IMG/VR virus record: IMGVR_UViG_3300024348_000005
Coordinates: 83,744-147,743 of that record
Reading direction: 5' to 3' (one strand)
Source: a virus
Length of the DNA: 64,000 nt
This document shows, piece by piece, positions 28,428-56,934 of this stretch. Under the pieces are notes generated by a model, which ran no database searches, had not been told where the DNA came from, and worked only from the letters and a program-made list of their open reading frames with translations. The position numbers and the translations under genes are program-made. Positions within the stretch are counted from its first letter, which is position 1. Each line of letters opens with the position of its first letter.

Positions 28428-29260
28428 ATTAAATCCTTTTCTATGTTTTTTATTATATTTTCAGCAATAACTTGATGACATAATTTTGATGGATGATGAT
28501 CTAATGGTGGATTATTCCCAAAACTATCAAAATCTGTTTTAATTACCATGTTTTTATTATTTTCTTGTAAATCCTTTATTGAAGAATAGGATACCCCATT
28601 ATAATTTAAATCTATAAATCTTATACTCAAAAAATCATCATTTTTTAAATAATTAACAATATCATTTTCCCAAGATAATATTTTTGTTTTAATACCCTTT
28701 TCTTCATAGAACATTAGTTCTTTTTTTAATCTAATGTACTGGTTTTCAATTTGTATTTTCTCCCATTCATTAAACGTATAATCGTTAGAATCAAACCACT
28801 CAAAGAACTTAACATTTTTTTCGTTTCTATTTTCTAATATAGGAGCAACATTCGTTTTATAATTAATACCCCCCAATTGAAAATGAAAATCATTTCTAAA
28901 TATGTGAGATATTTGAACTATCATATAATCAAAATCCACATAATCGTATTTTTTTAACATCAAATATTGATGTATATCTCGACCACCCAATAAATTAGGA
29001 ACTAACGAGTTTAGAAAAAAATCAAACGTTTTATCTTCCGACCCACCATTATCTTTTTTGGTCACCTCAAATGTATTGAAATGATTTGCAACCAATCTTG
29101 GATAGTATAATGTGTTTTTAAATTTTATTTGAGCGTCTGTTATTTCTTTTTGATTAAATACATATTCACTTTCAGGATATTTTAAATCCACCAAATCAGA
29201 ATAAAAATATAACCCTTGTCCCCATGTAAAAGAACATCCACCAAATATTATTCCTTTCAT
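28424..29260 (-). CDS. SGNH-like protein (tandem paralog of 27600)
   Basis: First 29 aa identical to 27600; DHHPSKLCHQVIAENII shared. Confidence 0.7.
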   Translation of the reverse strand: MKGIIFGGCSFTWGQGLYFYSDLVDLKYPESEYVFNQKEITDAQIKFKNTLYYPRLVANHFNTFEVTKKDNGGSEDKTFDFFLNSLVPNLLGGRDIHQYLMLKKYDYVDFDYMIVQISHIFRNDFHFQLGGINYKTNVAPILENRNEKNVKFFEWFDSNDYTFNEWEKIQIENQYIRLKKELMFYEEKGIKTKILSWENDIVNYLKNDDFLSIRFIDLNYNGVSYSSIKDLQENNKNMVIKTDFDSFGNNPPLDHHPSKLCHQVIAENIIKNIEKDLI

Positions 29261-35692: not shown

Positions 35693-36856
35693 TTATATTA
35701 AAGATTCAAAATAATTGTAATCAGTTCTATCGTTTATTATGTTTGAAACGATTTCATTATTTTTTAAAAACCTTTCTTTATTATTTATGATGAATTTTTT
35801 AATTTCATCTCTATTATTATAAATTCTATTTATTTCATCACAAACAAGTGAGAATCTCTTTTTAAAGTTAGTTTCATTATCATAATCGTGATTAACCACA
35901 TCCTCAAATAAATCAAACCCATATATTTCTTTTAGATTCTTAACATGAAATGCGGAAGATAAAAATATAGGTATTTGATAAAAAAAGAACGGTTTAAAGG
36001 ATTTCTCAGTTATATGTACATCTTCAGTAATGAAATTTGTTTCCGTTGTAATATTAAGATATGCATTACGAAACGTATCCTCACAAATGAAATCACCAAG
36101 ATCACCAAATTTAAAGACATGGTCAATTTCATATTTACTTTTCACGTTACCATTTTTTAAAATAATTTCAATTTCTTCTTTTAATGTTGGAGATAAATTA
36201 TAATCCACATTTGATTCCGAATCGAACATAAATGACCAGTCGACATCATTGATAATGTTTGTTTTTTTAAGAAACGCCAATACCGCAAGTCTGTGTGATT
36301 TCATTCTTTTATTATGACACATAAATAAAAATTCACGATTTGTAGAAAATTCTATTTTATGTTTATTTAATAGTTTTGAATAAAAGATTGGTAAATATTT
36401 TGTGGACAACACGTTAATGTTACTATTGTATTTTGATTTATAAAAATTTAAAAGAGAATTATTATTGATTAAATGTATTTTTGTCCCATCAATATTATGT
36501 CTATCTATAAAATCATTTAATTTTATGAAATTTTCTTCGTCAATAGACTCGTGCTCACTTAATAAAACAACATTTACATTATTTAATGTTTTTAATGAGA
36601 CCATTAATAACTCCGTAAATGGAATTGTATTTTCAAAAAAACTAAATGTAGATAATTTTGAAATAAAATAATAATATTTTTCATTAGGATTATTAAATGC
36701 ATCAATTAACTTAGATTCATTTATTTCTTTGAAATTAAAATATTTAAAATGTTTTTTTAAATACAACATTCTTTCCTCATCACTACCTTTAACAAAGTAA
36801 TAACTCAAATCTATATCATCTAAATTATCCTTAATAATATTTAAAAAATTACCCAT
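35693..36856 (-). CDS. HR/TEK-family glycosyltransferase-like protein
   Basis: CHNKRMKSHR, NITTET, HITEKSFKPF; start chosen at MGNFLN. Confidence 0.6.
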   Translation of the reverse strand: MGNFLNIIKDNLDDIDLSYYFVKGSDEERMLYLKKHFKYFNFKEINESKLIDAFNNPNEKYYYFISKLSTFSFFENTIPFTELLMVSLKTLNNVNVVLLSEHESIDEENFIKLNDFIDRHNIDGTKIHLINNNSLLNFYKSKYNSNINVLSTKYLPIFYSKLLNKHKIEFSTNREFLFMCHNKRMKSHRLAVLAFLKKTNIINDVDWSFMFDSESNVDYNLSPTLKEEIEIILKNGNVKSKYEIDHVFKFGDLGDFICEDTFRNAYLNITTETNFITEDVHITEKSFKPFFFYQIPIFLSSAFHVKNLKEIYGFDLFEDVVNHDYDNETNFKKRFSLVCDEINRIYNNRDEIKKFIINNKERFLKNNEIVSNIINDRTDYNYFESLI

Positions 36857-37473
36857 TTCCCCGTTCCGTAGTGCGGCCACTCTTTTTTATAATCATACCA
36901 AATAACATCTGAAGGAACCTCACTTTTAACTTTCCATGTTTCCACTGTTGGAGTGTTGGTCGATACACCATTATCCTCAACAACAAATTTTATTGGTAAA
37001 TCAAAATTTTTGGCATACTTGTAGTTTTCCATAAATCCACCAGTTTCAAATGCCATGTCACCAACAAAACACCAAACAGTTTCATTATTATCCTCTATTT
37101 TATTTGCCATAGCAACACCAACAGCAATCGGTATTATAGCACCAACAATTGCAGATGCATAGAATTTCTCATCTTTATTTACTAATGTAATTGACCTACC
37201 GTCTAATATTTCTTGTTCAATCCATTCAGATGGTACACCTTTAAGTAACGCATGGTAATGAGATCTCCAAGTTGAAAAAACCCAATCGGGTTTCTTAATG
37301 TATTTGAATATTTCAATTAACTCATCTTCATTACCACCACTTAAGTGAATCGGTCCCCTAACTCTTCCGGATTCCCAATGATCCGCCATTTTTCTTTCAA
37401 ACTGAATAAGTCCCGCTTTATCCCATAATGGTTTGTTTACCATCGGTAATGAATCTATTAAATTTTTTATCAT
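36841..37473 (-). CDS. ThDP-dependent dehydrogenase E1-alpha-like subunit (short)
   Basis: HLSGGNE, STWRSHYH, GDMA...EDN ThDP-binding motif. Confidence 0.85.
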   Translation of the reverse strand: MIKNLIDSLPMVNKPLWDKAGLIQFERKMADHWESGRVRGPIHLSGGNEDELIEIFKYIKKPDWVFSTWRSHYHALLKGVPSEWIEQEILDGRSITLVNKDEKFYASAIVGAIIPIAVGVAMANKIEDNNETVWCFVGDMAFETGGFMENYKYAKNFDLPIKFVVEDNGVSTNTPTVETWKVKSEVPSDVIWYDYKKEWPHYGTGKWVIF

Positions 37474-38006
37474 CTGTCTCTTTTTTGTAATATTGGATTA
37501 TTTGTTGGCCATTCCATTTGATATTCGGGGTCATTCCATTTAACAACACCTTGTTCATTTGCATCAACATAACCATCTTTATAAAATAGGTTATAATGAA
37601 ACATACAATCGGTTAATGCGTAATGACCATTGGCAAATCCTGGAGGAACCAATACTTGATTTCTATCTTTCTCGGTAATCATAAAGGATTCCCACTCACC
37701 AAAGGTATCTGATTTCGGTCTCATATCTAATACTATTAAATATATATCACCAACTGCGGCTTGTACTAATTTCCAAGTCTTATTGTCCCAATGTAACCCT
37801 CTCAATACACCTTTGTACGATTTTGAAAACCTACCATGTACTTCGTTTCCTTCACCTATTTTTTGCATAACAGGATGTTCACCTGAATGAAAAGTTGTGA
37901 ATATCTCACCCCTATATTCTCTATAAATTGATGGTGTATATGTTGGTACTTCGTAACCAAATTTTTTTGATGGAGTAATTTGAAACTCATTCCATTTATT
38001 ATTCAT
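37470..38006 (-). CDS. rfbC: dTDP-4-dehydrorhamnose 3,5-epimerase family
   Basis: RGEIF, SYKGVLRGLH, LDMRPKS.TFG.W, VPPGFANG, WNDP. Confidence 0.85.
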   Translation of the reverse strand: MNNKWNEFQITPSKKFGYEVPTYTPSIYREYRGEIFTTFHSGEHPVMQKIGEGNEVHGRFSKSYKGVLRGLHWDNKTWKLVQAAVGDIYLIVLDMRPKSDTFGEWESFMITEKDRNQVLVPPGFANGHYALTDCMFHYNLFYKDGYVDANEQGVVKWNDPEYQMEWPTNNPILQKRDR

Positions 38007-38007
38007 A

Positions 38008-38979
38008 TTACATGTTGTTTGCGTATCCTAAAGGAAAACCATTTCTAAATTCCGCACCCATTTTTGGTACAATCATTTGATAAGCCATTATTAATTCTTC
38101 AATACCCATATCAATATCCCACTTAGGAGACCAACCAGTCGATTCAATCTTTGCATTTGATACAATATAATCCCTTTTGTCGGGATCTTCGTAATAGTCG
38201 TTATATGAGACAGCAAAGTTTTTAACGTGTGATTGAATCTTCTCAAGTAATTCTTGTTTACTTAAATTAGCAGTACTTAAACCCACGTTAAAAATCTCAC
38301 CTTTATGTTGTTCATAATTTTCTAACATAAACAAGAATACATTTGCAACGTCTTGAATGTGAATGAAGTTTCTTTTAAAATTCTTTTCAAATACCACAAT
38401 GTATTTGTCAGTAATAGCTTTATAGGTAAAATCATTTACCAATAAGTCCGTTCTCATTCTTGGTGAAACACCAAACACAGTTGCCAATCTAAAAATGATG
38501 GCATTGGTATTTGATTTTAAGAAATTTTCTGCTGAACATTTTGTTGTGCCGTATATTGAAATTGGATTTAATGGTGATTCTTCGGTACATTCAGTTTGAC
38601 CCACACCAATACCATATCCACTATTTGTATTAGGATATAATATTTTTATATTTTTATCTTTGGTGAATTTAACTATGTTGAAAATCTGGTTAAAGTTAAT
38701 TTCCTTAGCTAATTCTGGTTCTGCATCACACGCAGGAAACCCAACAATTGCGGCTAATGGAATTATAACGTCAACCTCATTACAAAGTTTTTCCAATAAC
38801 GATTCGTTTCTAACATCTCCGTGAATAAATTTAAAATTAGGATTTGATGTATAAACTAATAAAGATGTTTGATTGAATATCAATTTATCCAAAACAACTA
38901 CTTTGTGTCCGGCATTTAACATTTTTCCGGTAATTACGGAACCAAGATATCCAGCTCCACCTGTGATTAGTATTTTCAT
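38008..38979 (-). CDS. NAD-dependent nucleotide-sugar epimerase/dehydratase
   Basis: TGGAGYLGS, LAAIVG, YGTTK, RLATVFG.SPRMR.DL. Confidence 0.88.
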   Translation of the reverse strand: MKILITGGAGYLGSVITGKMLNAGHKVVVLDKLIFNQTSLLVYTSNPNFKFIHGDVRNESLLEKLCNEVDVIIPLAAIVGFPACDAEPELAKEINFNQIFNIVKFTKDKNIKILYPNTNSGYGIGVGQTECTEESPLNPISIYGTTKCSAENFLKSNTNAIIFRLATVFGVSPRMRTDLLVNDFTYKAITDKYIVVFEKNFKRNFIHIQDVANVFLFMLENYEQHKGEIFNVGLSTANLSKQELLEKIQSHVKNFAVSYNDYYEDPDKRDYIVSNAKIESTGWSPKWDIDMGIEELIMAYQMIVPKMGAEFRNGFPLGYANNM

Positions 38980-38985
38980 ATTTAA

Positions 38986-39043
38986 AATATACAAAAAATA
39001 ATCTTAATTACAAATTGTTATTACGGATTTTTTTATTTATATT
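38986..39043. promoter_or_regulatory. Divergent sigma70-like promoter pair
   Basis: Plus strand TTGTTA(39015)-N17-TATATT(39038); minus strand TTGTAA-N16-TATATT (39013 to 38986). Confidence 0.5.
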
Positions 39044-39056
39044 TTATCATAATATT

Positions 39057-40328
39057 ATGGATAAAATCATTTGCAGTTTAGAGGAATGGGATACTATTTT
39101 TGATTATTATAGACCTAACGGATCATCGAAAACGTGGTATATTAAAGAATTGAAAAAACTAAGTCAACCACTAATGTGGGGGAAATGGAATCTATATAGT
39201 GAAGGTGGTGAGATGTTCGACAAGGGGATGATGATGGGTCAAATTACACCTAAACATTCAGACAGGTTAGAATATGTACCATTTGACCAAATACAAGAAG
39301 GGAGTCATTTATATATCATAAATGTCTACTCGTATAGTTTTTTTGTTGATAATTTAGACATTGGATTTGGTTGTATATCAGAAAAGTACCTAAAAGATAT
39401 CAAGGAAGGTAGGTCTAAAATTGTGATGTTGTTTCTTTATGAGGGATATTCCGGTTCTAAAGGTAACTATGATTTAGAGATAATTGAAAAATGGAGGGTT
39501 GATGCAGATTTACCTATAAACTCAATTTATTACGTTTCAGGTAATTTATTGTGTCAGCAAATTGTAGAGGAAAAAAAATTAGGGTATCAGGGACGACCAA
39601 TACAGTACTTTGAACCTTGGAACAAATATAATGAAAATACAATTATAGATTTTAAACCGATTAATGAAAAAAATTTATACTTAACCTATAATAGAAATCC
39701 AAGACAACATAGAGTACAGTTAATTTTAAATTTATTAAAACACAACATATTTGATAGGGGGTTAATTAGTTTAAGTGAATTACTTTATAAAACACCGGCA
39801 GATGCGAACGTTGAACACGTTGAATTTTTAAAGAACAACACCCCATTTGTTATCAGTGAAGGATGTGACTTGTTTTTTAACATGTGTTGTAATATTACTA
39901 AAGAAGATTATGAAAAAACCTTTATCTCAATGGTTACCGAAACTTTGGTTGATGAGGGTACATTGTTTATTTCGGAAAAAATATGGAAACCAATTATGGT
40001 CGGTCATCCATTTATTGTTTTTGGTAATTTATGGACTTTAAAATTTCTTAAGTCTATGGGTTACAAGACTTTTGATAAATGGATTAATGAGGAATACGAT
40101 AACGAGCCCGATAGTGGTAAAAGATGTAATATGATTACTGACGAACTGATAAAACTATCAACAAAAACTGTGGAGGAATTAAAGTTAATTAGAGATGAGA
40201 TGAACGAAGTGTGTGACCATAATCAAAAATGGTATAAAAAACTTTATGATGAAAAATATGGTGGAATTGACATAAACGGAGATTTAACTAAGATATTTGA
40301 AGAGGTTTGGAATGAATTAAAAAAATGA
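39057..40328 (+). CDS. HR/TEK-family glycosyltransferase-like protein
   Basis: YNRNPRQHR, MVTET, ISEKIWKP, GYKTF; ATG 39057. Confidence 0.6.
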   Translation: MDKIICSLEEWDTIFDYYRPNGSSKTWYIKELKKLSQPLMWGKWNLYSEGGEMFDKGMMMGQITPKHSDRLEYVPFDQIQEGSHLYIINVYSYSFFVDNLDIGFGCISEKYLKDIKEGRSKIVMLFLYEGYSGSKGNYDLEIIEKWRVDADLPINSIYYVSGNLLCQQIVEEKKLGYQGRPIQYFEPWNKYNENTIIDFKPINEKNLYLTYNRNPRQHRVQLILNLLKHNIFDRGLISLSELLYKTPADANVEHVEFLKNNTPFVISEGCDLFFNMCCNITKEDYEKTFISMVTETLVDEGTLFISEKIWKPIMVGHPFIVFGNLWTLKFLKSMGYKTFDKWINEEYDNEPDSGKRCNMITDELIKLSTKTVEELKLIRDEMNEVCDHNQKWYKKLYDEKYGGIDINGDLTKIFEEVWNELKK

Positions 40329-41623
40329 TAATGACAAAGAATTTTAATATAGTTTATGAAAATTGGAAAGGAGATGAACCCATATCTAATTGGGTGGATA
40401 TTTTTCCAAAAAGAAATTTAAAAGATCCATATTATTTAATACAACATTATATAAACGACACCGAATTTGAAAATAAATTTAATTTGAGGAGGTGTGATTT
40501 CGATGATGTGATGAATGCCCCAAATGAGAATTTTTATTATTTCGTAAACTACGGAGTGGGAGATTTATGTGAGTTATTTGAAAATAACGAATTTGGTAAA
40601 CCGGTACAACCATTAAATCCGATAAGTGATAAATTAAAAAGTTTTATTAAGGATAACCAAAACTTTAATATGGTTTTTTTAACCGAGCATGAACCTGATA
40701 ATGAAGAGGGGTTTAGAATTTTAAACGATTACATAAAAAATAATGATTTAAACGCAAAACAATTCTTTGTAATTAACAATAATTCCAAAATTAAGGACTA
40801 TAATCAAAAATATAACAGTGAGATTAATACATACACTTTAAATTTCATACCTCACTCATCAACTAAAGTTTTAGTTAGAATTGGTGGTTGTGAATTTAAC
40901 ACAGAAAGAAAGGGTAAGTTTTTTATGTGTTTTAATAAATCACCCAAATCACATCGTTACGCATTGTTATGTCTTCTTAAAAAGAATAATATTTTAGAAA
41001 ATACAAATTGGTCCTTAGTACCGTCGTGGAATTGTAATTTTGACGAGTCTTACCTTCGTTCTACCTTTTCTAAGAACGAATTGAAAATGATTAAAACCGA
41101 GATTGATTATTTTGGTAAAATTGATATCAAAAGAAGCGATTTTGAGGATGACAAGGGATGGTTTAATAGGTTCAGTAACATCAACAGGGACTCGTTACCA
41201 ATATGGCAACAAATACCGGAGCATTTAGAAACCTTTCTTAGTTCATATGTAAACATCGTAACAGAGTCAATGTTTAAAGATGTAAACAACAACATTCACA
41301 TATCCGAAAAATCATTTAGACCATTCTATTATTATCAAATCCCTGTTATATTATCAACACATGGACATATTAAAACACTAAAGGAAAAGTATGGATTTGA
41401 TTTTTACGACGATATTGTCAATCATAGTTATGATGATGAACCAGACCAAAAAACAAGATTAATAAAATTGGTTGCTGAGGTTGCAAGATTGAATAATAAT
41501 AAAGAAAAAATAGTAGAATTTTTTAAAAACAATAAAGAAAGATTCGAAAGTAATAAACAGAAAGTAATTGAAGTTTTGAATGTTGTAAATCAAGATTACC
41601 TTTATTTTGAAAGTCTAATATAA
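40325..41623 (+). CDS. HR/TEK-family glycosyltransferase-like protein
   Basis: CFNKSPKSHR, NIVTES, HISEKSFRPF. Confidence 0.6.
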   Translation: MIMTKNFNIVYENWKGDEPISNWVDIFPKRNLKDPYYLIQHYINDTEFENKFNLRRCDFDDVMNAPNENFYYFVNYGVGDLCELFENNEFGKPVQPLNPISDKLKSFIKDNQNFNMVFLTEHEPDNEEGFRILNDYIKNNDLNAKQFFVINNNSKIKDYNQKYNSEINTYTLNFIPHSSTKVLVRIGGCEFNTERKGKFFMCFNKSPKSHRYALLCLLKKNNILENTNWSLVPSWNCNFDESYLRSTFSKNELKMIKTEIDYFGKIDIKRSDFEDDKGWFNRFSNINRDSLPIWQQIPEHLETFLSSYVNIVTESMFKDVNNNIHISEKSFRPFYYYQIPVILSTHGHIKTLKEKYGFDFYDDIVNHSYDDEPDQKTRLIKLVAEVARLNNNKEKIVEFFKNNKERFESNKQKVIEVLNVVNQDYLYFESLI

Positions 41624-47488: not shown

Positions 47489-47517
47489 TTGACTTTTTGG
47501 TAAAAGTTAAGTATATT
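47489..47517 (+). promoter_or_regulatory. Sigma70-like promoter TTGACT-N17-TATATT
   Basis: Near-consensus -35 and 17-nt spacer, about 10 nt before ATG 47527. Confidence 0.65.
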
Positions 47518-47526
47518 AGTAGTATT

Positions 47527-47964
47527 ATGATATATTGGTTTACCGGACAACCCGCAGCAGGAAAAACGACTTTAGCTAAACATTTAGAGTCGTATATTTC
47601 ACATTCAAATAAGGTTATTCACATTGACGGTGATGATTTAAGAGATATCTTTCAAAATAAAGACTATTCCGAAACGGGTAGAAGAAAAAATATTGAAAGA
47701 GCTCAAGACATTGCTCGTTTTATGAGTGAAAAAGGATATGACGTTGTTGTGTCACTTGTTTCACCATATAGAGACCAAAGAGAACAATTTAAAGAAAATA
47801 ACGAAGTTCATGAGATTTATGTTCGTACCACCGATGATAGAGGTAGAAATGATTTTCATGTAACCAATTACGAAGCTCCAACTGACGATTTCGTTGAAAT
47901 CGATACAACAGATAGATTGGAGGTTGATTCGTTTATTGAATTAACAATAAAATTAAAAATATGA
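47527..47964 (+). CDS. cysC: Adenylylsulfate (APS) kinase
   Basis: WFTGQPAAGKTT, IDGDDLR, YS..GR..NI, VSLVSPY, YEAP. Confidence 0.85.
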   Translation: MIYWFTGQPAAGKTTLAKHLESYISHSNKVIHIDGDDLRDIFQNKDYSETGRRKNIERAQDIARFMSEKGYDVVVSLVSPYRDQREQFKENNEVHEIYVRTTDDRGRNDFHVTNYEAPTDDFVEIDTTDRLEVDSFIELTIKLKI

Positions 47965-48341
47965 GTAAAAAGTACGCAATGTATGTGGGGCGTTGGCAAA
48001 ATTGGCATAAGGGTCACGAATGGCTTATTAACCAACAATTAGAGAAAGGAAAAGACGTATGGGTTGCAATTAGAAACGTACCCACAGATGAAAATAACCC
48101 AAAAACCGCACAACAGGTAATGATGGATTTATCTGAGGAGACTTTCTTTAAAGAAAATTCACAAAGAATTAATATATCAATTATTCCTGATATTGAGAGT
48201 ATCAATTATGGTAGAGGGGTTGGGTATGATGTTATTTACCATGAACCACCTCCAGATGTTGCAGTTATTAGTGGTACAGCAATTAGAACCGGCCACATGA
48301 CACCTGATGGTGAAATTAAATATGACCAAACAAAAGGATAA
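47961..48341 (+). CDS. Minimal HxGH nucleotidyltransferase (candidate ATP sulfurylase)
   Basis: GRWQNWHKGH and ISGTAIR motifs; coupled to cysC. Confidence 0.65.
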   Translation: MSKKYAMYVGRWQNWHKGHEWLINQQLEKGKDVWVAIRNVPTDENNPKTAQQVMMDLSEETFFKENSQRINISIIPDIESINYGRGVGYDVIYHEPPPDVAVISGTAIRTGHMTPDGEIKYDQTKG

Positions 48342-48556
48342 TGATAGTAGAAAGAAAAAGACATATCGCCAAAACCGTCTCATATCGTATTGTAAGTACC
48401 CTTATTGGATTTGTTATAATGTGGTGGGTAAGCGGTTCAATAAAGGTTGGTGCCGCATTTGGGATAGCCGAATTAATATATAAACCCATCCAATATTATC
48501 TTCATGAAAGAATTTGGTATAAATGGATAAAATTTGGTCTAAAAGATAAAAAATAA
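48341..48556 (+). CDS. DUF2061-like small membrane protein
   Basis: RHIAKTVSYRI, hydrophobic segments, YYLHERIW. Confidence 0.75.
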   Translation: MIVERKRHIAKTVSYRIVSTLIGFVIMWWVSGSIKVGAAFGIAELIYKPIQYYLHERIWYKWIKFGLKDKK

Positions 48557-48565
48557 GTATTTATA
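48557..48565 (+). promoter_or_regulatory. Putative late promoter RTATTTATA
   Basis: gtatttata about 18 nt before ATG 48583; same motif precedes the fibre genes. Confidence 0.55.
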
Positions 48566-48582: not shown

Positions 48583-50079
48583 ATGAGAACAGTATTAATA
48601 GGTTCGGACTTTATGTACGATCAGGATGGTAATTTAAAACCCATTGAAATAAACACCGCAGTTGGTTGGGATAATGCATCTAAAGTTGAACATGATGTGG
48701 ATTCTTTGGATTTAACAAATTTATACCAATTTGTTACTGATAATAACTTCCAAAATATACATTATGTAGGTGATATACAATATTTCCATAAAACATTAGA
48801 AACACACTATACAGGAAGTTCCGTTACATATGAATACCACGCAATCGGTGGTTTGTCGATTACTATTCCATTTATAGAGGATAATGATGAAACATTGATT
48901 ATCAGAAGTGCATATGATACAACAGCGTTGGTAGATGATACCTATTGTAGAGATAAGGTTGAATTTATGAAACTTATCCAATCTCAATCATTCGGTTCAC
49001 AATTTGCTTACATAGATGAAAACAATACTTTAATTAATACCATAACAACAATACCAGATAATGGTGTACATCCGAATTTTATTCTAAAATCAAGGTATCC
49101 TGGTTATGATAAAGAGGTTTATCCTAAATTTTATAAAGTAACAACACAAGAAGAATTAGATGTGGTTTTAGAAAATGTAACATCTGATTACTTCTTAATG
49201 GAGAATTATTGTAACACTACTAATAATTACGAAGGACATATAAAGATAATTAGAAGTTTAAATATATTATATCCACCGACATTAGAATCAATTCAAATTG
49301 GACAATATACCAAATTGAATGAAAACGTATTTTTTTCTGAAGTAGAATATAACTCAGAAACCCATGAGATAAATTCAGAATATAGAGATAGTTACACAAC
49401 TAACACAAATGGTAGATGGCTACCTAAACTATTAGATACGGATATGGTCGAAATGGGCGATGGTACATTTAAAACTGCGTTAGATTTAAATGTTGATGAT
49501 GTAATTAAAACAATAGATATTCCAAATCCAAATGGTATTGATAATTCATCCTATGTTGGAAATTTTGGAATATCATACGAAACATTACTAAGTGGTACAA
49601 CGTATTCAACAAATAAAATTATTGCATTAAAGAGAGTTAATAAATTATCATATTTTTATCAATTAACTTTTGATGATGATAGTACTTGGGAGGATACCGG
49701 AGTTTCTTCGTATTTGATTGAAAGAAATAACGAAGTTCAATTTGAACATTTATTTGATGTGGTAAATGGAGATGTGGTTTTATTGTTAAACACAACGGAC
49801 GGGTTAATGGATTTTGTTAGAAAAACAATAGTGTCTGTTGTTCAAGTTAAAAAGGTATTTACCGGTTGGTTTATTTCAGTAGAAAGAGCACACTTATTTT
49901 TAACTAAGACCACATCAACAAATAACGAATCATTTGTTTCTATTGAACATAATGGACCAGCATGTCCAGTGGGATGTTGTTCCGCTTCATGTCCAACGTG
50001 TCCCAAATCCGAACCTCAATGCTCTGGTCCAGTATGGGCTCCAACATGTAATGGTTATTCGGGAATATGTTACTCATAA
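48583..50079 (+). CDS. Circularly permuted ATP-grasp-like / Hint domain / Cys-rich peptide fusion
   Basis: DFMYDQDGNLKPIEINT, NFILKS, FLMENY (CP ATP-grasp-like); Hint blocks ending IEHN; then GPACPVGCCSASCPTCPKSEPQCSGPVWAPTCNGYSGICYS. Confidence 0.7.
   Translation: MRTVLIGSDFMYDQDGNLKPIEINTAVGWDNASKVEHDVDSLDLTNLYQFVTDNNFQNIHYVGDIQYFHKTLETHYTGSSVTYEYHAIGGLSITIPFIEDNDETLIIRSAYDTTALVDDTYCRDKVEFMKLIQSQSFGSQFAYIDENNTLINTITTIPDNGVHPNFILKSRYPGYDKEVYPKFYKVTTQEELDVVLENVTSDYFLMENYCNTTNNYEGHIKIIRSLNILYPPTLESIQIGQYTKLNENVFFSEVEYNSETHEINSEYRDSYTTNTNGRWLPKLLDTDMVEMGDGTFKTALDLNVDDVIKTIDIPNPNGIDNSSYVGNFGISYETLLSGTTYSTNKIIALKRVNKLSYFYQLTFDDDSTWEDTGVSSYLIERNNEVQFEHLFDVVNGDVVLLLNTTDGLMDFVRKTIVSVVQVKKVFTGWFISVERAHLFLTKTTSTNNESFVSIEHNGPACPVGCCSASCPTCPKSEPQCSGPVWAPTCNGYSGICYS
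49426..49953 (+). other. Hint (intein-like) domain lacking the N-terminal nucleophile
   Basis: KLLDTDMVEMGDGTFKTALDLNVDD aligns to CFxxGTxVxMxDGxxKxIxDLxVGD with Cys1 replaced by Lys; LTFDDDSTWEDT; DVVNGD; ISVERAHLF...IEHN. Confidence 0.7.
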
Positions 50080-50100: not shown

Positions 50101-50190
50101 ATGGCAACTATAATAACAAACACAGAAATCAACGTTCTAAATACAACTTTAACTACCATTGGTAATTTAATTGTAACCGCAAATAGTTAA
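50101..50190 (+). CDS. 29-aa Thr/Asn/Ile-rich peptide (not in ORF track)
   Basis: MATIITNTEINVLNTTLTTIGNLIVTANS; fills the intergenic gap after an A-rich leader. Confidence 0.55.
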   Translation: MATIITNTEINVLNTTLTTIGNLIVTANS

Positions 50191-50208: not shown

Positions 50209-50739
50209 ATGGTTTATTTCATTCCCAATGTACTTTCAAAGGTGGAGTGTGAATTCTTGTCTAAACAATTTGATATTGAAAAAATAAATCACGCTTCTGG
50301 TGATAAAGTAGTAGATACAAATGCTTCCTTTGGGTTTAGACCTTCATATAATTTTGATAAATATTTAGATATTCTAAAACCAAAAGTATTAGAATTCAAT
50401 AATGAAATCGAACACTTAGATAATGTAAACACATATGTTAGAGAGTATTTCAATAGTGCATTTTTAACAAAACATATAGATAGAACAGATATAAGTGTAA
50501 CAATGTCAATATGTTTAGAGTCAACAATAAATAAAGAATGGCCGCTATTTGTAGAAATAGATGGTAAGGAATATTCACATCACACAAATGTGGGTGATGG
50601 AATAATATTATTTGATGCTGATAAAAACGTTCATTGGAGAAATCCTTTAGAATGTGACGAAACCCAAAGAGTATTACAATTTTTTCTACATTGGATGCCA
50701 ATTAATTATGTTGCAAAGAAAAATAAATCATTAATATAA
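50209..50739 (+). CDS. 2OG-Fe(II) oxygenase
   Basis: LTKHIDR, SVTMSICL, WPLF, HWR; ends KSLI. Confidence 0.8.
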   Translation: MVYFIPNVLSKVECEFLSKQFDIEKINHASGDKVVDTNASFGFRPSYNFDKYLDILKPKVLEFNNEIEHLDNVNTYVREYFNSAFLTKHIDRTDISVTMSICLESTINKEWPLFVEIDGKEYSHHTNVGDGIILFDADKNVHWRNPLECDETQRVLQFFLHWMPINYVAKKNKSLI

Positions 50740-51347
50740 TGTTAGATGCAATAAAATTTTCAGAAGAATTATCAATATATACCACAAAAATTAGTGATAT
50801 TGATAATGAACAACTTTCTAAAGATTTAGAATTGAATTGTAATATAAATAAAAACTTAATTAAGGGTGATAATATTCCGGGTATACAATCTGATATTATT
50901 ATAACTTCTAAAAATATCCAAGATTTAGAAATTAAAATTATAAAAATAATAAAAGATTTTTTAAAACTAAAGGATGATTATGTAATATATAAGTGGTATT
51001 GGACATACATTAGTGATTCTAATAATACACTATCAAAATATCATAACCATGTAACAAATTATAATATTGAATATTCAAGAGAAATTCCACAATGGTCATT
51101 AGTTTATTATGCAAGTTTCCCCAATAATTTGGAAGGGAATGATGGCATGTCATTATTCCAAACAAAATCAGGTGAAGAATTTTCAATATTACCCGAAGAA
51201 AGTCAGATAATAATATTTCCATCGGATGTACTACATAAACCCGGATTGAATAAAAATTCTACTAAAAAAAGAATAGTTTTTGCAGCTAACGTAGCAATTT
51301 TAGATACAAATAAAGAATATTCTAAAAAACAAAAATCATTAATATAA
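50739..51347 (+). CDS. 2OG-Fe(II) oxygenase-like protein (HxH type)
   Basis: YHNH, WSLVYY, IFPS.VLH, RIVFAAN; ends KSLI. Confidence 0.7.
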   Translation: MLDAIKFSEELSIYTTKISDIDNEQLSKDLELNCNINKNLIKGDNIPGIQSDIIITSKNIQDLEIKIIKIIKDFLKLKDDYVIYKWYWTYISDSNNTLSKYHNHVTNYNIEYSREIPQWSLVYYASFPNNLEGNDGMSLFQTKSGEEFSILPEESQIIIFPSDVLHKPGLNKNSTKKRIVFAANVAILDTNKEYSKKQKSLI

Positions 51348-51353
51348 AAAGTT

Positions 51354-51926
51354 ATGTCGTTTACATATAAATCTATATCAAATTTATTAACAAAAGAAGA
51401 ATGTAATTTAGTTCTAAATTTCACATTAGAAAATTTAATATTAAAACCTGCTGAAATTGTAGGAGATAATAATCACAATTACGATGCTAGAAAATCAAAT
51501 GTGGTGTTTTATCCATATTATCAAAAATTTTCATTTATTTTAGAAAAAATATCTAAATTATTAGATGAAAATATTTTAATAAAAGGATTTGACTTAGATT
51601 ACAAAAATAGTCAATTCCAATTCACAGAATATAAAATTGGGGATTACTTTGCGTGGCATAAAGATATTACAGGAAATGAAGTTACACAATATGATAGATA
51701 TTGTTCGTTAGTTATACAATTAAATGATGAATATGAAGATGGTGATTTAGAATTAAAATTATCGGATGATTCAATAATGAAAGTAGAAAAGGGAATAGGT
51801 AATACTATTGTTTTTTTATCAGATATTGAACACAGAGTAACTGGTGTTAAAAATGGTAATAGATATACATTAGTTAATTGGGTTGGTTTAAAAAAAACCA
51901 ATAATTATAAAAAAACACTATTATAA
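51354..51926 (+). CDS. 2OG-Fe(II) oxygenase, prolyl-4-hydroxylase/PKHD-like
   Basis: QFTEY, WHKD, YEDGDL, HRVT.V..G.RY.LV.W; ends KTLL. Confidence 0.85.
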   Translation: MSFTYKSISNLLTKEECNLVLNFTLENLILKPAEIVGDNNHNYDARKSNVVFYPYYQKFSFILEKISKLLDENILIKGFDLDYKNSQFQFTEYKIGDYFAWHKDITGNEVTQYDRYCSLVIQLNDEYEDGDLELKLSDDSIMKVEKGIGNTIVFLSDIEHRVTGVKNGNRYTLVNWVGLKKTNNYKKTLL

Positions 51927-51927
51927 T

Positions 51928-52224
51928 ATGATAGATTTCAAAGAAATTTCAACTGCGTGGTACAATACACTTATACATTCTAATGAATTAAAAAAATTAG
52001 CAGATAATAGGTTTGATATTTGTTTAGAATGCCCATCTAAGCAAGAAATGTTTAAAGGAAAGGAATGGTCCCTCAGATGTGGAGAATGTGGTTGCCCATT
52101 AAAAGGTAAAGTATATACCCCAAAAACATATTTAGATAAAAAGGGGTCGTGTCCATTAGGAAAATGGAAAGAAGTTGAAGATGAATATTTAAAAAGTTTT
52201 AAAAAATCTAAAACTATTATATAA
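51928..52224 (+). CDS. Small Cys-rich metal-binding protein (DUF6171-like)
   Basis: RFDICLECP...CGECGCPL..K...CPLGKW; ends KTII. Confidence 0.7.
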   Translation: MIDFKEISTAWYNTLIHSNELKKLADNRFDICLECPSKQEMFKGKEWSLRCGECGCPLKGKVYTPKTYLDKKGSCPLGKWKEVEDEYLKSFKKSKTII

Positions 52225-52226
52225 CA

Positions 52227-52907
52227 ATGTCCCATTTAATTAATAATGAACTTATTTGGGTTTCAATTCCAAAGTGCGCTAGTTACTCCATTGAAAGGTC
52301 ATTAAGAAACTCAAAATTAAATTTAGAATTAATTGAACCAAATGACAAAACACTTCATTTTCACATACCTCTAAATCAATGTTTAGAACGATGGGGCGAT
52401 AAAGAAACTGTTTGTATAACTCGTAATTGGTTATTTAGATGGTTAAGTGCCTTAAATTTTATTTGGGATAACATAGAATTTGAAAGCGAATATAATGCAA
52501 TTCGTAATTGGGAGGATGTTGATAATGAATATATCTATAAAACATTTGATACCGATTTTTTAAATAATTTACATTTGTTGAGTAATGATTATGATGGATT
52601 TAGGAAATGCTGGTTTAAACTGGTAAAAGAAAATTTTGAATGTGAATTACCAATTCGAGGTGCGGTTGACACTTTACTTTCTCAAAGATTTTACAAATCT
52701 AATAAAAAATGCACCTACGAATTTGATATTAGTGAGATTGATAAATTTATAGATTTTATAGAAGATAAGTTTGGTGAAAGATTGATTATAAATCACACAA
52801 ATAGAACATCTAAGAGACCAAATAAGATAATCGTAAATGATGAATTAAAATCATTTATTTGGGATAATTTCGAAAAAAGATTTGAAAAGGGAAATTATTT
52901 AATATAA
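52227..52907 (+). CDS. Sulfotransferase family 2-like protein
   Basis: WVSIPKCASYSI (5'-PSB loop), RN...RWLS (3'-PB); ends NYLI. Confidence 0.7.
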   Translation: MSHLINNELIWVSIPKCASYSIERSLRNSKLNLELIEPNDKTLHFHIPLNQCLERWGDKETVCITRNWLFRWLSALNFIWDNIEFESEYNAIRNWEDVDNEYIYKTFDTDFLNNLHLLSNDYDGFRKCWFKLVKENFECELPIRGAVDTLLSQRFYKSNKKCTYEFDISEIDKFIDFIEDKFGERLIINHTNRTSKRPNKIIVNDELKSFIWDNFEKRFEKGNYLI

Positions 52908-53638
52908 TGATAGTAGATAAAAAATTTATTTTTATAAGTCTACCAAGATGTGCATCAACATCATTTATGATTACGTGCCTTAAAAACAAAATACCAATAG
53001 AACATCTTAATTCAAATTTTGATAATCAGTTGATTAAGATAAATGAATGGGAAAAAATGAATAATGAAGAATTATCTGATAGTTTACTACACGCGCATGA
53101 GCCATTATATAAATTACAAGAGAAATTTGGGGTAACCAATCAAATTATTTCAATAAGAAGAAACAATTACGATAGATTTTTATCTTTATGGAAACATATC
53201 ATAGATGAATTATATAGAATCAAAAAACTTGATATTGCGGATATATTTTCAAAACTAACAACTAATCATATATTTGAAAATATTAAATCAAATGACATTT
53301 ATAATTCAGAAAATAGATATAAAGTTATTGATAATTTTTTAACTAAATTAGAAATTTCAAAAAAAGAATCTTATATCAAAAATATGTTAGATATATTATT
53401 TACACCAATAGTTGAACTCACAAATGGTAATCCAAATATTATTTGGTTTGATATTGATAATTTAGTGGAATTAGAAAATTGGGTATCAAAAAAATTAAAT
53501 AAGGATTTTAAAATGGAAAAAATAAACTCAAGTAAACAATTTGAGTGTGCAATAGAAATCAATGATGATTTTAAACAAAAATATGATAATCTTTATAAAG
53601 AATTCGAACAAAGAAAAATAAATAAAACATTAATTTAA
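52907..53638 (+). CDS. Sulfotransferase family 2-like protein
   Basis: FIFISLPRCASTS, RRNNYDRFLS; ends KTLI. Confidence 0.7.
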   Translation: MIVDKKFIFISLPRCASTSFMITCLKNKIPIEHLNSNFDNQLIKINEWEKMNNEELSDSLLHAHEPLYKLQEKFGVTNQIISIRRNNYDRFLSLWKHIIDELYRIKKLDIADIFSKLTTNHIFENIKSNDIYNSENRYKVIDNFLTKLEISKKESYIKNMLDILFTPIVELTNGNPNIIWFDIDNLVELENWVSKKLNKDFKMEKINSSKQFECAIEINDDFKQKYDNLYKEFEQRKINKTLI

Positions 53639-54109
53639 GTGGAAATTTATAAAAACATATTAACAAATGATTTTTGTGATACTTTAATTGAAAAAATTAA
53701 GAATCAATGTGTGTTAAGTGAATCACATAAAACAGATTGGTTTGTTTGGTTAATATGGGGCCAACAAGGTATTCAACTACTTGATAGAGAAAAGTGGAAT
53801 GAAGAAATTTATAATATGATAATAAATGAGTTGGATAAATGTAATTTTCCTAAACATAAAATAATGTGGTTACAAATGACGGAATACAAAGATGGTAGGT
53901 GGTTACGAAGACACATGGATGGTGCAGGAAACAAAACATCAATAATTTTGTTATCCAATGGGTTTGTAGGTGGAGATACCTATATAAATGATAGAGTTGT
54001 AAATTTAGAAAAAGGTGATGGTGTTGTATTTGCTGGCGGTCACCAATATCACGAAATAAAACCAGTAACGAAAGGAACACGATACGCATTAAATTTTTGG
54101 TTTCATTAA
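53639..54109 (+). CDS. 2OG-Fe(II) oxygenase, prolyl-4-hydroxylase-like
   Basis: HMD, FVGGDT, HEIKPVTKGTRY. Confidence 0.85.
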   Translation: MEIYKNILTNDFCDTLIEKIKNQCVLSESHKTDWFVWLIWGQQGIQLLDREKWNEEIYNMIINELDKCNFPKHKIMWLQMTEYKDGRWLRRHMDGAGNKTSIILLSNGFVGGDTYINDRVVNLEKGDGVVFAGGHQYHEIKPVTKGTRYALNFWFH

Positions 54110-54118
54110 TAATATATT

Positions 54119-55162
54119 ATGGTAGATTTAAAAAACTATACATGCAACGTACCATTCACCTCATTAGAAGTACATAATAATGTATGTTTTGTTTGTTGTC
54201 CATCTTGGTTACCCAATAAAGTAGAACTTAGTGAAATTCCACTAAAAGATGTTTTTAATAGTGAACCAATTATTGATATTAGAAATTCTATTTTAGATGG
54301 TTCATTTAAGTATTGTAGTAAAGAACTTTGTCCCTATTTAAGTAAATTGGTAAACTATGGCGTAACATCAGGACCTGTTACTTTAAACTCGGATTCAAAC
54401 ATTAATAGTCCGATTGTAGAAAATAATACACCTGATTATTTAGTAATGAATTTTGATAGGACTTGTAATTATAAATGTCCATCATGTAGAGTAGATTTGA
54501 TTGTTGAAGATAGTAAAGGTATAAGACGTGTTGAAAAAACGATTGAGGATATTGATAAATATTATTCACAGCATGTAAAAACATTATACATTACTGGCTC
54601 TGGCGACCCATTTGTATCTGTTGGATTCCGAAATTATTTAAGAAATTTTAATCCTAAAAAATATCCTAATTTAAAATCCATACATCTTCATACTAACGCA
54701 TCTATGTGGAATAAAGAAATGTGGGACAGTATGCCAAACGTACACAAATACGTTCATACTTGTGAAATTAGTATAGATGCGGGTACAAAAGATACTTACG
54801 AAAATAAAACAAGAATAGGTGGTAATTGGGATAACTTATTGGGTAATTTAAAATTTATTAACACCCTACCAAATATGAATGTAAAAACATCCTTCGTTGT
54901 ACAAGATACAAATTATACCGAAATGGAAACATTTTATAATTTGATGTATTCTATTTTTGATAAAAAGGTAAATGTATTTTTTGGTAAGATAACTAATTGG
55001 GGGACATTTTCAGAAGGTGAATTTAAATTAAAACAAGTGTGGGATATAGAACATCCAGAACACCAGTTATTTAAAAAAGAGTTTAATAAAATATGGAAAA
55101 ACACAAATCTATTTCACAATCTATATGAGTTTATTGATACTACAAATAAAACGTTAATATAA
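54119..55162 (+). CDS. Radical SAM enzyme with N-terminal auxiliary Cys cluster
   Basis: CNVPF..VCCP...CSKELCP; CNYKCPSC; GSGDPF; ends KTLI. Confidence 0.85.
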   Translation: MVDLKNYTCNVPFTSLEVHNNVCFVCCPSWLPNKVELSEIPLKDVFNSEPIIDIRNSILDGSFKYCSKELCPYLSKLVNYGVTSGPVTLNSDSNINSPIVENNTPDYLVMNFDRTCNYKCPSCRVDLIVEDSKGIRRVEKTIEDIDKYYSQHVKTLYITGSGDPFVSVGFRNYLRNFNPKKYPNLKSIHLHTNASMWNKEMWDSMPNVHKYVHTCEISIDAGTKDTYENKTRIGGNWDNLLGNLKFINTLPNMNVKTSFVVQDTNYTEMETFYNLMYSIFDKKVNVFFGKITNWGTFSEGEFKLKQVWDIEHPEHQLFKKEFNKIWKNTNLFHNLYEFIDTTNKTLI

Positions 55163-55659
55163 TGAAAATTTTATTAATTACTTTACCTAGAACCGGGTCA
55201 ACCTCATTATTAAAAAAAATATCCAAAGAACAAAAACTAAATTCAATAAGTGAACCATTCAACAATGTTAATGGTAATTCGGAAAAATACAAATATTATA
55301 ATTGGAAAAGTACAAACGATATATGTGTTAAAACACATATAAATCACAAAGACATACCATTTTATTTAGAGTTTATTAAATTTTTTGATGAAGTGATTTT
55401 ATTATCCAGAAAAGATTTAAACGCATGTGCAGAAAGTTTATCTTACGCAAACCATTTTCAAAGTTTTACGGAAAAATATAAATGGATTAAGACACCCAAT
55501 CTTAATGAAAATATTAAATTAGTAAAAGAATTTAATGAAGAATTAGAAAAACTATCCAAATTAACCAATATTAAAATTTCATATTATGAGGAATTGTTTG
55601 ATTCAGAATCGGAAGATAAATTAAGAAAAAATGATATTAAAAGAGAAAATCTTATTTAG
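55162..55659 (+). CDS. Sulfotransferase-like (P-loop) protein
   Basis: LPRTGSTSL, SEPF, VKTH, LSRKD....ES, YYEEL; ends ENLI. Confidence 0.65.
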   Translation: MKILLITLPRTGSTSLLKKISKEQKLNSISEPFNNVNGNSEKYKYYNWKSTNDICVKTHINHKDIPFYLEFIKFFDEVILLSRKDLNACAESLSYANHFQSFTEKYKWIKTPNLNENIKLVKEFNEELEKLSKLTNIKISYYEELFDSESEDKLRKNDIKRENLI

Positions 55660-56131
55660 TAAGGAGGAGTGTGAATCTATAATATCATATAACGACACAC
55701 ATATTACAAATTGGTTAATGGGAGATAGAAAATACAATTCACAACCAATTAATTATTCATTAGAAACCAAATGGTTATTTGATAAATTAAAAGAATTTGT
55801 TGAAGAAAATACTGATATTAAAATAAAGAAAATTAAAGAAACAATACATTTTCATAAATTTACAAAAGATGATTGGTTTGGAAAACATAACGATATTAGA
55901 GATAATAGATTATATGCTGTGGGAGTTTTATTAAACGATGAATTTGAAGGGGGTGATTTTAAATTATACAACCCAAATCAAATTATATTAGATAAAGTTA
56001 TTGGAAATACATATTTATTTGATGTAAGAATAGACCACGAAATAACACCAATTTTAGAAGGTGAACGATATTCTTTATTATGGTTTTTAGAAAATGAACA
56101 TATAAAAATAGAAACAAATAAATTAATATGA
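55631..56131 (+). CDS. 2OG-Fe(II) oxygenase
   Basis: HND, LNDEFEGGDF, HEITPILEGERY; ends NKLI. Confidence 0.85.
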   Translation: MILKEKILFSKEECESIISYNDTHITNWLMGDRKYNSQPINYSLETKWLFDKLKEFVEENTDIKIKKIKETIHFHKFTKDDWFGKHNDIRDNRLYAVGVLLNDEFEGGDFKLYNPNQIILDKVIGNTYLFDVRIDHEITPILEGERYSLLWFLENEHIKIETNKLI

Positions 56132-56934
56132 ACCCATTAGAATATTGGAATTCAGAAGGATTTGAAATTTCATCTTATATGTATTCATTAAGGGGAAGAG
56201 TAAATAAAACATACAGAACTTCCGGTAGTGATAATACCGAAAAATGTACCTACACCTATAATGAATTAGGATTTAGGGGTGATAGTATAAAAAAAGAAGG
56301 TTTTAAAGTCATGTCATTAGGATGTTCAAATACCGAAGGTGTTGGAGTAAATCATTATGAAACATGGCCATCTCAATTCACATCATTAATACCAAACGGT
56401 ATTAATATGAATTTTGGTACGGGGGGTAGAAGTAATGATTTCATTACTAGATGTCTATTAACATATTATGATATAATAAAACCTGATTTGGTATTAATAA
56501 TGTATACAGATCCATTTAGAAGAGAATTTTATACTAAAGATGGTGGGATAGAACCCTTTATGCCAACAGTATCTTGGGGATATTTGAAAGAAACAGATGA
56601 CGGTGTTAAAACACAAGAATATTTAACTTATTTACAAAATAATAACGAGGACATAATAAATTGGCATAAAAATCATTTATTAATAAAGTATTTTTTAGAA
56701 TCAAAAAAATGTAATTGGATATGGAATGGTTTTTTCAATATACCAAAAGATTGTAATGAATTTAATAGATTTGATGGCGATTACGATATGCCTTTTTTGG
56801 ATTTTGGAGTTGATGGGGTACATCCAGGTCCAAACCACAATAAAACATACGCTCATAAATTGTATAATTTCATATCAAAAAATTTCCCACATTACATATA
56901 TTACTTACCCAAAAATAAACAAAGTTTGATTTGA
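56128..56934 (+). CDS. SGNH-like protein
   Basis: YNELGFRG, LGCSNTEGVG, NFGTGGRSN, DGVHPG; ends QSLI. Confidence 0.7.
   Translation: MNPLEYWNSEGFEISSYMYSLRGRVNKTYRTSGSDNTEKCTYTYNELGFRGDSIKKEGFKVMSLGCSNTEGVGVNHYETWPSQFTSLIPNGINMNFGTGGRSNDFITRCLLTYYDIIKPDLVLIMYTDPFRREFYTKDGGIEPFMPTVSWGYLKETDDGVKTQEYLTYLQNNNEDIINWHKNHLLIKYFLESKKCNWIWNGFFNIPKDCNEFNRFDGDYDMPFLDFGVDGVHPGPNHNKTYAHKLYNFISKNFPHYIYYLPKNKQSLI

Follow-up and report, generated by a model that had tools for sequence, protein, structure and literature searches.

A gene in a 64,000-nucleotide stretch of viral DNA (positions 83,744 to 147,743 of IMG/VR record IMGVR_UViG_3300024348_000005, hereafter the window) encodes a protein in which a predicted ATP-grasp amide ligase, a degenerate Hint domain and a short Cys-rich tail are fused in one chain. 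We propose, with confidence somewhat above an even chance, that cyclization of Asn457 at the end of the Hint domain would free the segment behind it, here called the cargo, and that the fused ligase would then make an amide bond involving this cargo. Such a layout may represent a novel mode of release and attachment for peptides or protein domains. The original prediction for this locus had divided the protein into the same three parts, and on translation the boundaries and every motif that it quoted were found where it had placed them; its description of the 41-residue tail, with eight Cys, seven Pro and Gly as the first residue after the Hint domain (position +1), was likewise correct.

The gene (window:48583-50079, plus strand) is an intact open reading frame (ORF) that translates to 498 amino acids (aa). 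The ORF is real and not a chance ORF, since homologues are numerous (n = 802 at E≤1e-3 in a set of 5.8 billion proteins) and of near-constant length (~495 aa), and the ratio of nonsynonymous to synonymous substitution rates (dN/dS) of the core amounts to 0.06-0.2. All homologues begin at the same Met. The family comprises 259 representatives of 50%-identity clusters and was found at 77 loci on IMG/VR viral contigs with sizes of up to 335 kb; no split or stand-alone full-length forms of the ligase-Hint fusion were seen among its complete genes. Searches with the whole protein yielded no Pfam family at E≤10 and nothing usable in PHROGs (best E 0.53) or among Protein Data Bank (PDB) sequences (all E≥0.6), and tblastn of 50,697 GenBank phage records gave no match. 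The sole match among 185,579 prokaryote species genomes was a 2044-bp contig (L002, CAIWXP010000069.1) of a 'Candidatus Diapherotrites' (DPANN archaeon) metagenome-assembled genome. This contig carries the fusion gene and a fragment of the tagged zinc-ribbon-like gene described below, nothing else, and is probably a phage contig mis-binned into the archaeal assembly. A 211-kb contig, IMGVR_UViG_3300042892_005961, holds two diverged copies of the gene (L042 and L065) ~38 kb apart, with 54% and 45% identity to the query; some phages therefore make two different cargos.

Residue conservation was read from alignments of 53 sequences reaching down to 43% identity (A3), of 26 close homologues (A1) and of 101 sequences (the wide alignment). 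An AlphaFold2 (AF2) model of aa 1-283 built from the 101-sequence alignment had a predicted local distance difference test score (pLDDT) of 94.6 and a predicted template modelling score (pTM) of 0.89, and the ATP-grasp fold appears to be complete within these residues. Foldseek comparison of the model with the PDB retrieved eukaryotic glutathione and homoglutathione synthetases, Escherichia coli YgiC/YjfC and glutathionylspermidine synthetase (GspS) at E-values of 4e-6 to 1e-3. In a VIA-wide search the nine best chains, every one a permuted ATP-grasp, scored Z 6.5-7.8 with alignments that began at model residue 1-3, whereas the classical ATP-grasps TTLL, ArgX/LysX, RimK and Ddl scored Z 4.4-5.9 and aligned only from residue 52-57. 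This difference in starting points supports the circular permutation of the phage ligase, and the model, the Foldseek matches and the alignment ranges together support an assignment of aa 1-283 as a circularly permuted ATP-grasp of the glutathione-synthetase/GspS/YgiC type, as originally predicted. Judged from the alignment starts, the first residue of the phage ligase corresponds to residue ~94-160 of the matched glutathione synthetases, YgiC and Cp1B, and to residue ~310 of GspS; the ligase is a minimal domain of ~280 aa. Against the viral structures of BFVD the model gave nothing at E≤1e-3.

The extreme N-terminus of the ligase carries the motif D9-F10...D13.D15-G16.L18-K19.I21-E22-I23-N24-T25, followed by FILKS at 166-170 and FLMENY at 204-209. 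Residues D9, E22, N24, R108, D118, K125, K169, K182 and R224 are invariant in 53/53 sequences of A3, and D9 and N24 also in the wide alignment. By analogy with Cp1B, Ddl and biotin carboxylase, D9, E22, N24, R108, K169, K182 and R224 may supply a Mg-binding triad and phosphate-binding Lys and Arg side chains. Positions 10-36 of the family profile align weakly to residues ~275-312 of biotin carboxylase (E 0.5-2). In the fungal permuted ATP-grasp Cp1B, R139, D141, E163 and N165 are needed for activity, and enzymes of this clade form amides from carboxylates through an acyl-phosphate (PMC12568646). The E163 and N165 pair of Cp1B would be equivalent to E22 and N24 of the phage ligase. P0164, P0187, P0204 and P0210 all show the D...ExN motif and the strand Lys; the ligase is kept with every cargo type described below. 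We infer that the domain is a catalytically intact carboxylate-amine ligase from a clade that activates peptide C-terminal carboxylates.

In Hint domains, cyclization of the Asn in a terminal His-Asn pair cleaves the chain after Asn, and splicing needs an N-terminal nucleophile together with Cys, Ser or Thr at +1. The full-length model of the fusion protein had a pLDDT of 64 overall and below 40 in the tail and was reasonable over most of aa 290-450; within the Hint region most 10-residue blocks scored 67-92, with 56 at residues 321-330 and ~52 at the C-terminal junction. Foldseek matched this region to the hedgehog autoprocessing domain, mini-inteins and Tetrahymena BIL2 (6Y75/6TMM) at E-values of 2e-7 to 1e-5; there were 57 PDB matches at E≤1e-3, all listed ones being Hint domains (TMt about 0.6-0.73). 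The family profile of the region (A2) matched the Methanocaldococcus jannaschii (Mja) KlbA intein at E 6.5e-7. On this evidence aa 282-457 are predicted to adopt the Hint fold.

The first Hint position is Lys282, a Lys in 53/53 sequences of A3, and none of the distant relatives that we inspected has Cys, Ser or Thr there. Block B reads T372-G-V-S375-S; the profile alignment to the KlbA intein places S375 on the TxxH histidine, and the position is Ser in 52/53 sequences of A3. Compared with inteins, the domain ends in His-Asn as they do and has no N-terminal nucleophile, no block-B His and no Cys, Ser or Thr at +1. Splicing and N-terminal cleavage are excluded because the N-terminal nucleophile and related residues have been lost, while C-terminal Asn cyclization would still be possible. 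The Foldseek matches, the KlbA profile and the residue frequencies thus agree with the non-splicing Hint domain of the original prediction (Lys for Cys1, no block-B His, His-Asn kept). Its claim of an intact block F/G stands for the window protein, in which H437-L-F and I454-E-H-N457 are both present, but does not extend to the family: H437 is His in 40/53 sequences of A3 and 14/26 of A1, and M, R, K or E elsewhere.

The end of the Hint domain is far more constant. E455-H456-N457 is invariant or nearly so, with His-Asn invariant in A3. A core hidden Markov model (HMM) was run on all 283 retrieved proteins, 207 of which reach the junction; His-Asn was present in 199 of these 207 and Asn in 206. 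Directly behind this pair conservation ceases: position +1 is occupied by any of 17 amino acids across the family (Gly458 in the window protein), the HMMER matches of distant relatives end at query residue ~458-460 with unrelated sequence beyond, and the remainder after His-Asn is 8-1242 aa long. A conserved ligase-Hint core and His-Asn junction, followed by a variable yet Cys-rich tail, is the pattern that the original prediction had proposed to look for among homologues. The coincidence of the conserved pair with the end of homology is one of the grounds on which we consider cleavage after Asn457 probable.

Among the 26 close homologues the mean pairwise identity is 71% in the ligase, 63% in the Hint domain and 33% in the tail (22% without the Cys columns), and the Cys content of the tail is 20% vs 0.6% in the core. 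Most tails are 33-45 aa long with six or eight Cys, and the count is six or eight in 171/177 short tails. Lys475 is Lys in 51/53 sequences of A3 and 26/26 of A1. All 177 short tails contain Lys, 143 of them exactly one, and the pattern C-x(0,2)-K-x(1,6)-C occurs in 168/177 tails vs a mean of 61 in shuffled ones. Acidic residues are scarce (Asp 2.3%, Glu 2.0%), and there is no conserved acidic partner. The even Cys count and the variable spacing favour disulfides over a fixed metal site, and the even count suggests that the peptide would become a disulfide-knotted mini-domain once outside the cell.

The tail also evolves differently from the core. Its dN exceeds that of the core 3- to 100-fold, its dS is raised too, and its dN/dS lies at 0.14-0.48. 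In one pair of loci (L003 vs L004) the cores differ at 6 of ~1370 nucleotides (nt), 13 differences are clustered in 24 nt of one tail loop (gene positions 1444-1467), and the flanking genes are far more diverged than the core, which suggests mosaic exchange around and within the fusion gene. The tail appears to be hypervariable, in part by patchy exchange. Clear positive selection on the tail was considered and is not supported: dN/dS stays at 0.14-0.48, dS is raised as well, and the clustered changes in the close pair fit patchy recombination as readily as selection.

Relatives with other cargo provide a further view of the junction. In proteins of 997-1667 aa, similarity to the query is confined to residues 1 to ~460; unrelated sequence follows, with cargo regions of 540-1242 aa, some of them containing BACON domains. 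In three representatives His-Asn is followed by a Cys-rich segment of ~85 aa and then by a Peptidase_S74 autocleaving chaperone; the Peptidase_S74 domain is typical of tail fibres, and these variants hint that cargo can be a fibre-type virion part. In ~65 clusters His-Asn is followed by a Lys-free peptide of 20-30 aa with 6-8 Cys, a canonical Cys1 Hint domain (Pfam Intein_splicing 1e-15, PT-HINT 4.9e-11) and a second His-Asn with a short stub of the form x(0-4)-Lys-(Lys)-x. The residue at +1 of this second junction is never Cys, Ser or Thr. In these two-Hint relatives the Lys sits in the stub behind the second Hint domain and no longer in the peptide, an apparent relocation that recalls the way in which BIL2 resolves a thioester onto lysine.

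The segment after the first His-Asn thus appears to be bracketed by a second self-cutting module in two independent architectures, and of all the comparative evidence this speaks most strongly for its being released as a product. Because the same core and His-Asn pair occur with varied cargo, what has been conserved is the combination of a ligase with a module that releases polymorphic cargo. The original prediction had described the gene as a precursor of a ribosomally synthesized and post-translationally modified peptide (RiPP); a Cys-rich peptide is indeed the commonest cargo, but the label is too narrow, as distant relatives carry cargo that is 100-1242 aa long or doubly bracketed. A peptide precursor looks like the commonest case of a cargo-release module and not its definition.

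The anatomy of the protein suggests the following sequence of events. Asn457 would cyclize to a succinimide and break the Asn457-Gly458 bond, freeing a 41-residue peptide with eight Cys, one Lys and a new alpha-amine. The fused ATP-grasp domain would then form an amide bond involving the freed cargo, as the fusion and its conservation imply. The likeliest nucleophile would be the new alpha-amine, which is preferred because it is the sole chemical feature common to all cargo types; for Cys-rich cargo, Lys475 offers an alternative. Candidate carboxylate partners are the C-terminus of the micro-protein encoded directly downstream, the peptide's own C-terminus, and an acid group on glycosylated collagen-like fibres. 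That the ligase acts on or with the released cargo is a little short of an even chance in our judgement. The most specific form of the proposal, in which polymorphic cargo, be it a Cys-knot peptide, a BACON-containing region or a fibre-type segment, is joined by cutting and subsequent ATP-dependent ligation, through its new N-terminus or Lys, to a carboxylate on a fixed partner such as the micro-protein or the collagen-like fibres, is offered tentatively and is rather improbable. If it were true, interchangeable tips would be attached after translation in a scheme reminiscent of ubiquitin or Pup but assembled from a Hint domain and an ATP-grasp enzyme, and the two-Hint relatives would reach the same product by thioester chemistry.

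Several observations weigh against release followed by ligation. The usual helpers of Asn cyclization are degenerate, the F-block His being kept in ~75% of sequences and the block-B His and F-block Asp being replaced, and some relatives have Pro, a poor leaving group, at +1. Neither the tail C-terminus nor the +1 residue is conserved, so that there is no evident specific fit between enzyme and substrate, and the poor full-length model leaves the tail unplaced relative to the active site. The structural matches of the ligase are moderate: TMq was 0.42-0.46 in Foldseek, and in the VIA-wide search 192-226 residues were aligned at root-mean-square deviations of 4.3-5.6 with all Z below 8. Judged from the alignment starts, the phage ligase also lacks the ~95-145 N-terminal residues that precede the aligned region in the matched chains. 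Finally, the two-Hint relatives already possess thioester chemistry yet retain the ligase, so simple activation of the peptide C-terminus cannot be what the ligase is for.

Release and ligation might also be unconnected, with the Hint domain freeing a polymorphic effector or decoration domain, the ATP-grasp domain serving the surrounding glycan genes (for example, by amidating a sugar acid or a small molecule) and the fusion ensuring only co-expression or localization. The position of the gene within a ~60-kb island of glycan enzymes, the UDP-glucose dehydrogenase genes near it in relatives, the polymorphic and recombining nature of the cargo, which resembles toxin tips, and the retention of the ligase whatever the cargo type all accord with this explanation. 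We consider it unlikely nonetheless, given that the ligase-Hint fusion has been kept over at least 250 clusters at 50% identity with no split or stand-alone forms among complete genes, that no immunity-like gene was recognized beside the cargo, and that the conserved cargo Lys and the Lys-Lys stub of the two-Hint forms suggest amine chemistry on the cargo.

It is distinctly less likely that no cleavage takes place and that the Hint fold serves as a static structural or adaptor element in a 498-aa protein that acts whole, with a metal-binding or disulfide-rich module at its C-terminus. The degeneracy of several catalytic Hint positions and a weak, non-significant match of the tail to the Fe-S-binding wing of FeoC (E 2.8) could be read in this way, but His-Asn is near-absolutely conserved exactly where homology ends, the Cys spacing is too variable for a fixed metal site, the tail is swapped for unrelated cargo of up to 1242 aa, and two independent variant types have a second autocleaving module beyond the cargo. 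That the Hint domain is a mobile intein in decay, which had inserted itself into an ATP-grasp gene and left the tail as its C-extein, is highly improbable. The Hint domain does resemble mini-inteins in fold and, weakly, in sequence, and phage genes are frequent hosts of inteins; against this, the domain is under purifying selection, as its pairwise identity and the dN/dS of the core indicate, neither a nucleophilic first residue (Cys, Ser or Thr) nor a core without the Hint domain was seen in any member, and the supposed C-extein is hypervariable, interchangeable and situated outside an ATP-grasp fold that is complete in aa 1-283.

The preferred interpretation, release of cargo followed by ligation, can be compared with several known systems. 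Hint domains of polymorphic toxins stand directly before a polymorphic C-terminal domain and are thought to release it (Zhang et al. 2012, PMC3482391). Like such pretoxin-HINT domains (PF07591), the Hint domain of the fusion lies immediately N-terminal to a polymorphic, recombining C-terminal domain, giving a constant N-terminal part with variable tips. Unlike them, it gives no match to PF07591 or any other Hint Pfam family at E≤10 and has no N-terminal Cys, its partner is an ATP-grasp ligase and not a secretion, trafficking or RHS region, it is phage-encoded, and the cargo is mostly a Cys-rich peptide of 35-42 aa and not an enzyme toxin. Family searches found no toxin family in the cargo; the downstream gene is the conserved micro-ORF, and no immunity gene was recognized.

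BIL2 of Tetrahymena BUBL passes a thioester to lysine and so makes an isopeptide (PMC8616854). The fusion resembles BIL domains in having a Hint domain that would cleave or conjugate and would not splice classically, with BIL2 among its best structural and profile matches, and the two-Hint relatives (peptide, Cys1-Hint, x-x-Lys-Lys) look built for BIL2-type chemistry. Unlike BIL2, the Hint domain of the window protein has no Cys1 and cannot form a thioester, and its cargo is C-terminal, not N-terminal, to the domain; unlike BUBL, for which ATP is not needed, it is fused to an ATP-dependent ligase. With the permuted ATP-grasps 2HGS, GspS (2IO7), YgiC/YjfC (7UKA/7UK6) and fungal Cp1B (9CJN) the phage ligase shares the leading D...ExN strands and the catalytic-type residues; it differs from them in having no sequence-level match and no preceding N-terminal region and in its fusion to a Hint domain. 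Graspetide and microviridin pathways likewise couple an ATP-grasp gene to a ribosomal peptide with a conserved Lys, but there the ligase is a RimK-like enzyme, separate and without permutation, which recognizes a leader peptide and forms cross-links between Thr, Ser or Lys and Asp or Glu, whereas the phage enzyme is permuted, is part of the same chain as the peptide, is predicted to act after autocatalytic release and faces no conserved ester or amide partner motif. Peptidase_S74 chaperones of phage fibres and spikes serve in the three family representatives as a second, independent means of cutting the cargo and are absent from the window protein. The fusion protein falls outside inteins, PF07591 and graspetide systems alike.

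A full-text literature search found no paper that joins an ATP-grasp domain to a Hint domain in the ligase-Hint-peptide layout, in line with the original remark that this architecture was not recognized as a described one; the 'moraphage' jumbo-phage paper (PMC12619734) contains no mention of ATP-grasp, intein or collagen. Should the inferred steps prove right, one polypeptide chain would bring along its own substrate, set it free with no need of a protease and have an ATP-dependent amide ligase at its disposal, a combination not described for RiPPs, polymorphic toxins or phage virion assembly. Represented by hundreds of sequence clusters from jumbo phages of lake and marine waters, the family is a common, unstudied piece of phage biology, and its variants (two Hints with a Lys-Lys stub, an S74 chaperone, cargo of more than 1000 aa) form a comparative series for working out the chemistry. 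Possible tools would be a C-cleaving Hint domain with 17 different +1 residues across natural relatives and a compact ligase of 280 aa.

Table 1. Coordinates of the fusion gene, its parts and neighbouring features in the window.
Feature	Coordinates	Strand	Basis
Fusion gene, 498 aa (ligase, Hint, Cys-rich tail)	48583..50079	+	ORF/translation, homologue searches
Circularly permuted ATP-grasp-like amide-ligase domain (predicted), aa 1-283	48583..49431	+	AF2 model, Foldseek, VIA-wide
D9...E22-x-N24, predicted Mg/ATP-binding strand pair, N-terminal through permutation	48607..48654	+	invariant residues
Degenerate Hint domain (predicted), aa 282-457; Lys at Cys1, Ser375 for block-B His, Gly428 at F-block Asp position	49426..49953	+	Foldseek, profile A2, residue frequencies
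His456-Asn457, predicted Asn cyclization site, cut between Asn457 and Gly458	49948..49953	+	conservation
Candidate cargo peptide, aa 458-498, 41 aa, 8 Cys, 7 Pro, single Lys	49954..50076	+	identity and composition
Lys475 codon, only conserved non-Cys tail residue, motif C-P-K	50005..50007	+	conservation
Promoter-like motif TATTTATA, ends 17 nt before fusion-gene ATG	48558..48565	+	motif distribution
29-aa micro-ORF, conserved ...IG.LI...NS C-terminus	50101..50190	+	locus survey, alignment A4
190-aa 2-oxoglutarate (2OG)-Fe(II) oxygenase, frequent companion	51354..51926	+	Pfam PF13640 9e-12; 65/77 eligible loci
98-aa six-Cys zinc-ribbon-like protein, ends -KTII (shared tag)	51928..52224	+	75/77 eligible loci; no Pfam family

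The fusion gene belongs to an uncultured T4-like jumbo phage, a myovirus of aquatic (lake and marine) metagenomes. A syntenic relative of 335,630 bp (IMG/VR record G001), rated complete by CheckV, carries a T4-type Gp23 capsid gene (E 2e-63) and gave no match to a capsid of nucleocytoplasmic large DNA viruses (NCLDV); a search of the same record with Terminase_6C gave no match either, which is uninformative. A distant long-cargo relative adjoins a tail-sheath gene. A giant-virus origin was dropped on these grounds, that is, the complete relative with T4-type Gp23 and no NCLDV capsid and the long-cargo relative beside the tail-sheath gene.

The window is part of the ~60-kb island mentioned above, which encodes nucleotide-sugar enzymes including epimerases, glycosyltransferases, a carbamoyltransferase, adenosine-5'-phosphosulfate (APS) kinase, 2OG-Fe(II) oxygenases and radical S-adenosylmethionine (SAM) enzymes. 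Four collagen-like fibre genes lie at 1361-13037 and 62532-63998; their products are up to 1923 aa long and have long G-X-Y runs and no Cys. The complete relative has the same island layout and the same collagen-like set, which lies at distances of ~35-55 kb (upstream) and 13 kb (downstream) from the fusion gene there. The 'tailoring' genes around the fusion gene are members of this glycan and collagen-fibre island and need not act on the peptide; the fusion itself is probably tied to the glycosylated collagen-like fibres of these phages. Just upstream, at 47497-48556 and syntenic in relatives, are genes for APS kinase, a 126-aa protein with an H-x-G-H nucleotidyltransferase-like motif and no Pfam match, and a DUF2061 membrane protein. 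The APS kinase and its neighbours, taken with sulfotransferase-like genes at 52227-53638, suggest that the phage encodes a sulfation pathway.

The motif TATTTATA has plus-strand copies in the window at 1289, 3367, 9251, 39034, 47470, 48558 and 62504, all seven of them intergenic and 15-64 nt upstream of a long ORF. The ORFs behind them are the four collagen-like genes, the gene starting at 39057, the APS-kinase gene and the fusion gene. In related upstream regions the motif stands 15-26 nt before the ATG in 40 of 49 distinct cases vs 0.9% of background 60-nt windows. A role as the general late promoter is not supported, as the motif is absent upstream of the capsid gene in the complete relative.

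A micro-ORF of one family, encoding 24-30 aa, begins 9-58 nt past the stop codon of the fusion gene in 77/78 standard-type loci. In its alignment (A4) G21 and L23 are invariant and N14, I20, I24, N28 and S29 are conserved at 90% or above; it is better conserved than the fusion's own tail, with which it shows no visible co-variation. The equivalent in two-Hint and S74-type relatives is longer and ends in -K-H-L. The idea that the micro-protein mimics the N-terminal repeat of the collagen-like fibres was abandoned, as the A4 profile finds only itself in the six-frame translation of the window.

Approximately 17 ORFs of unrelated families in the window share a C-terminal tag of the form x-[S/T/K/D/N]-L-I, roughly K-x-x-K-[S/T]-L-I-COOH. 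They are found at 24421-30108, 35693-41623 and 50209-56934 and include 2OG oxygenases, sulfotransferase-like proteins, a radical SAM enzyme, the zinc-ribbon-like protein and others. The tag codons vary synonymously (TTA ATA, CTT ATT, TTG ATT, CTA ATA), and the tag is therefore selected at the protein level.

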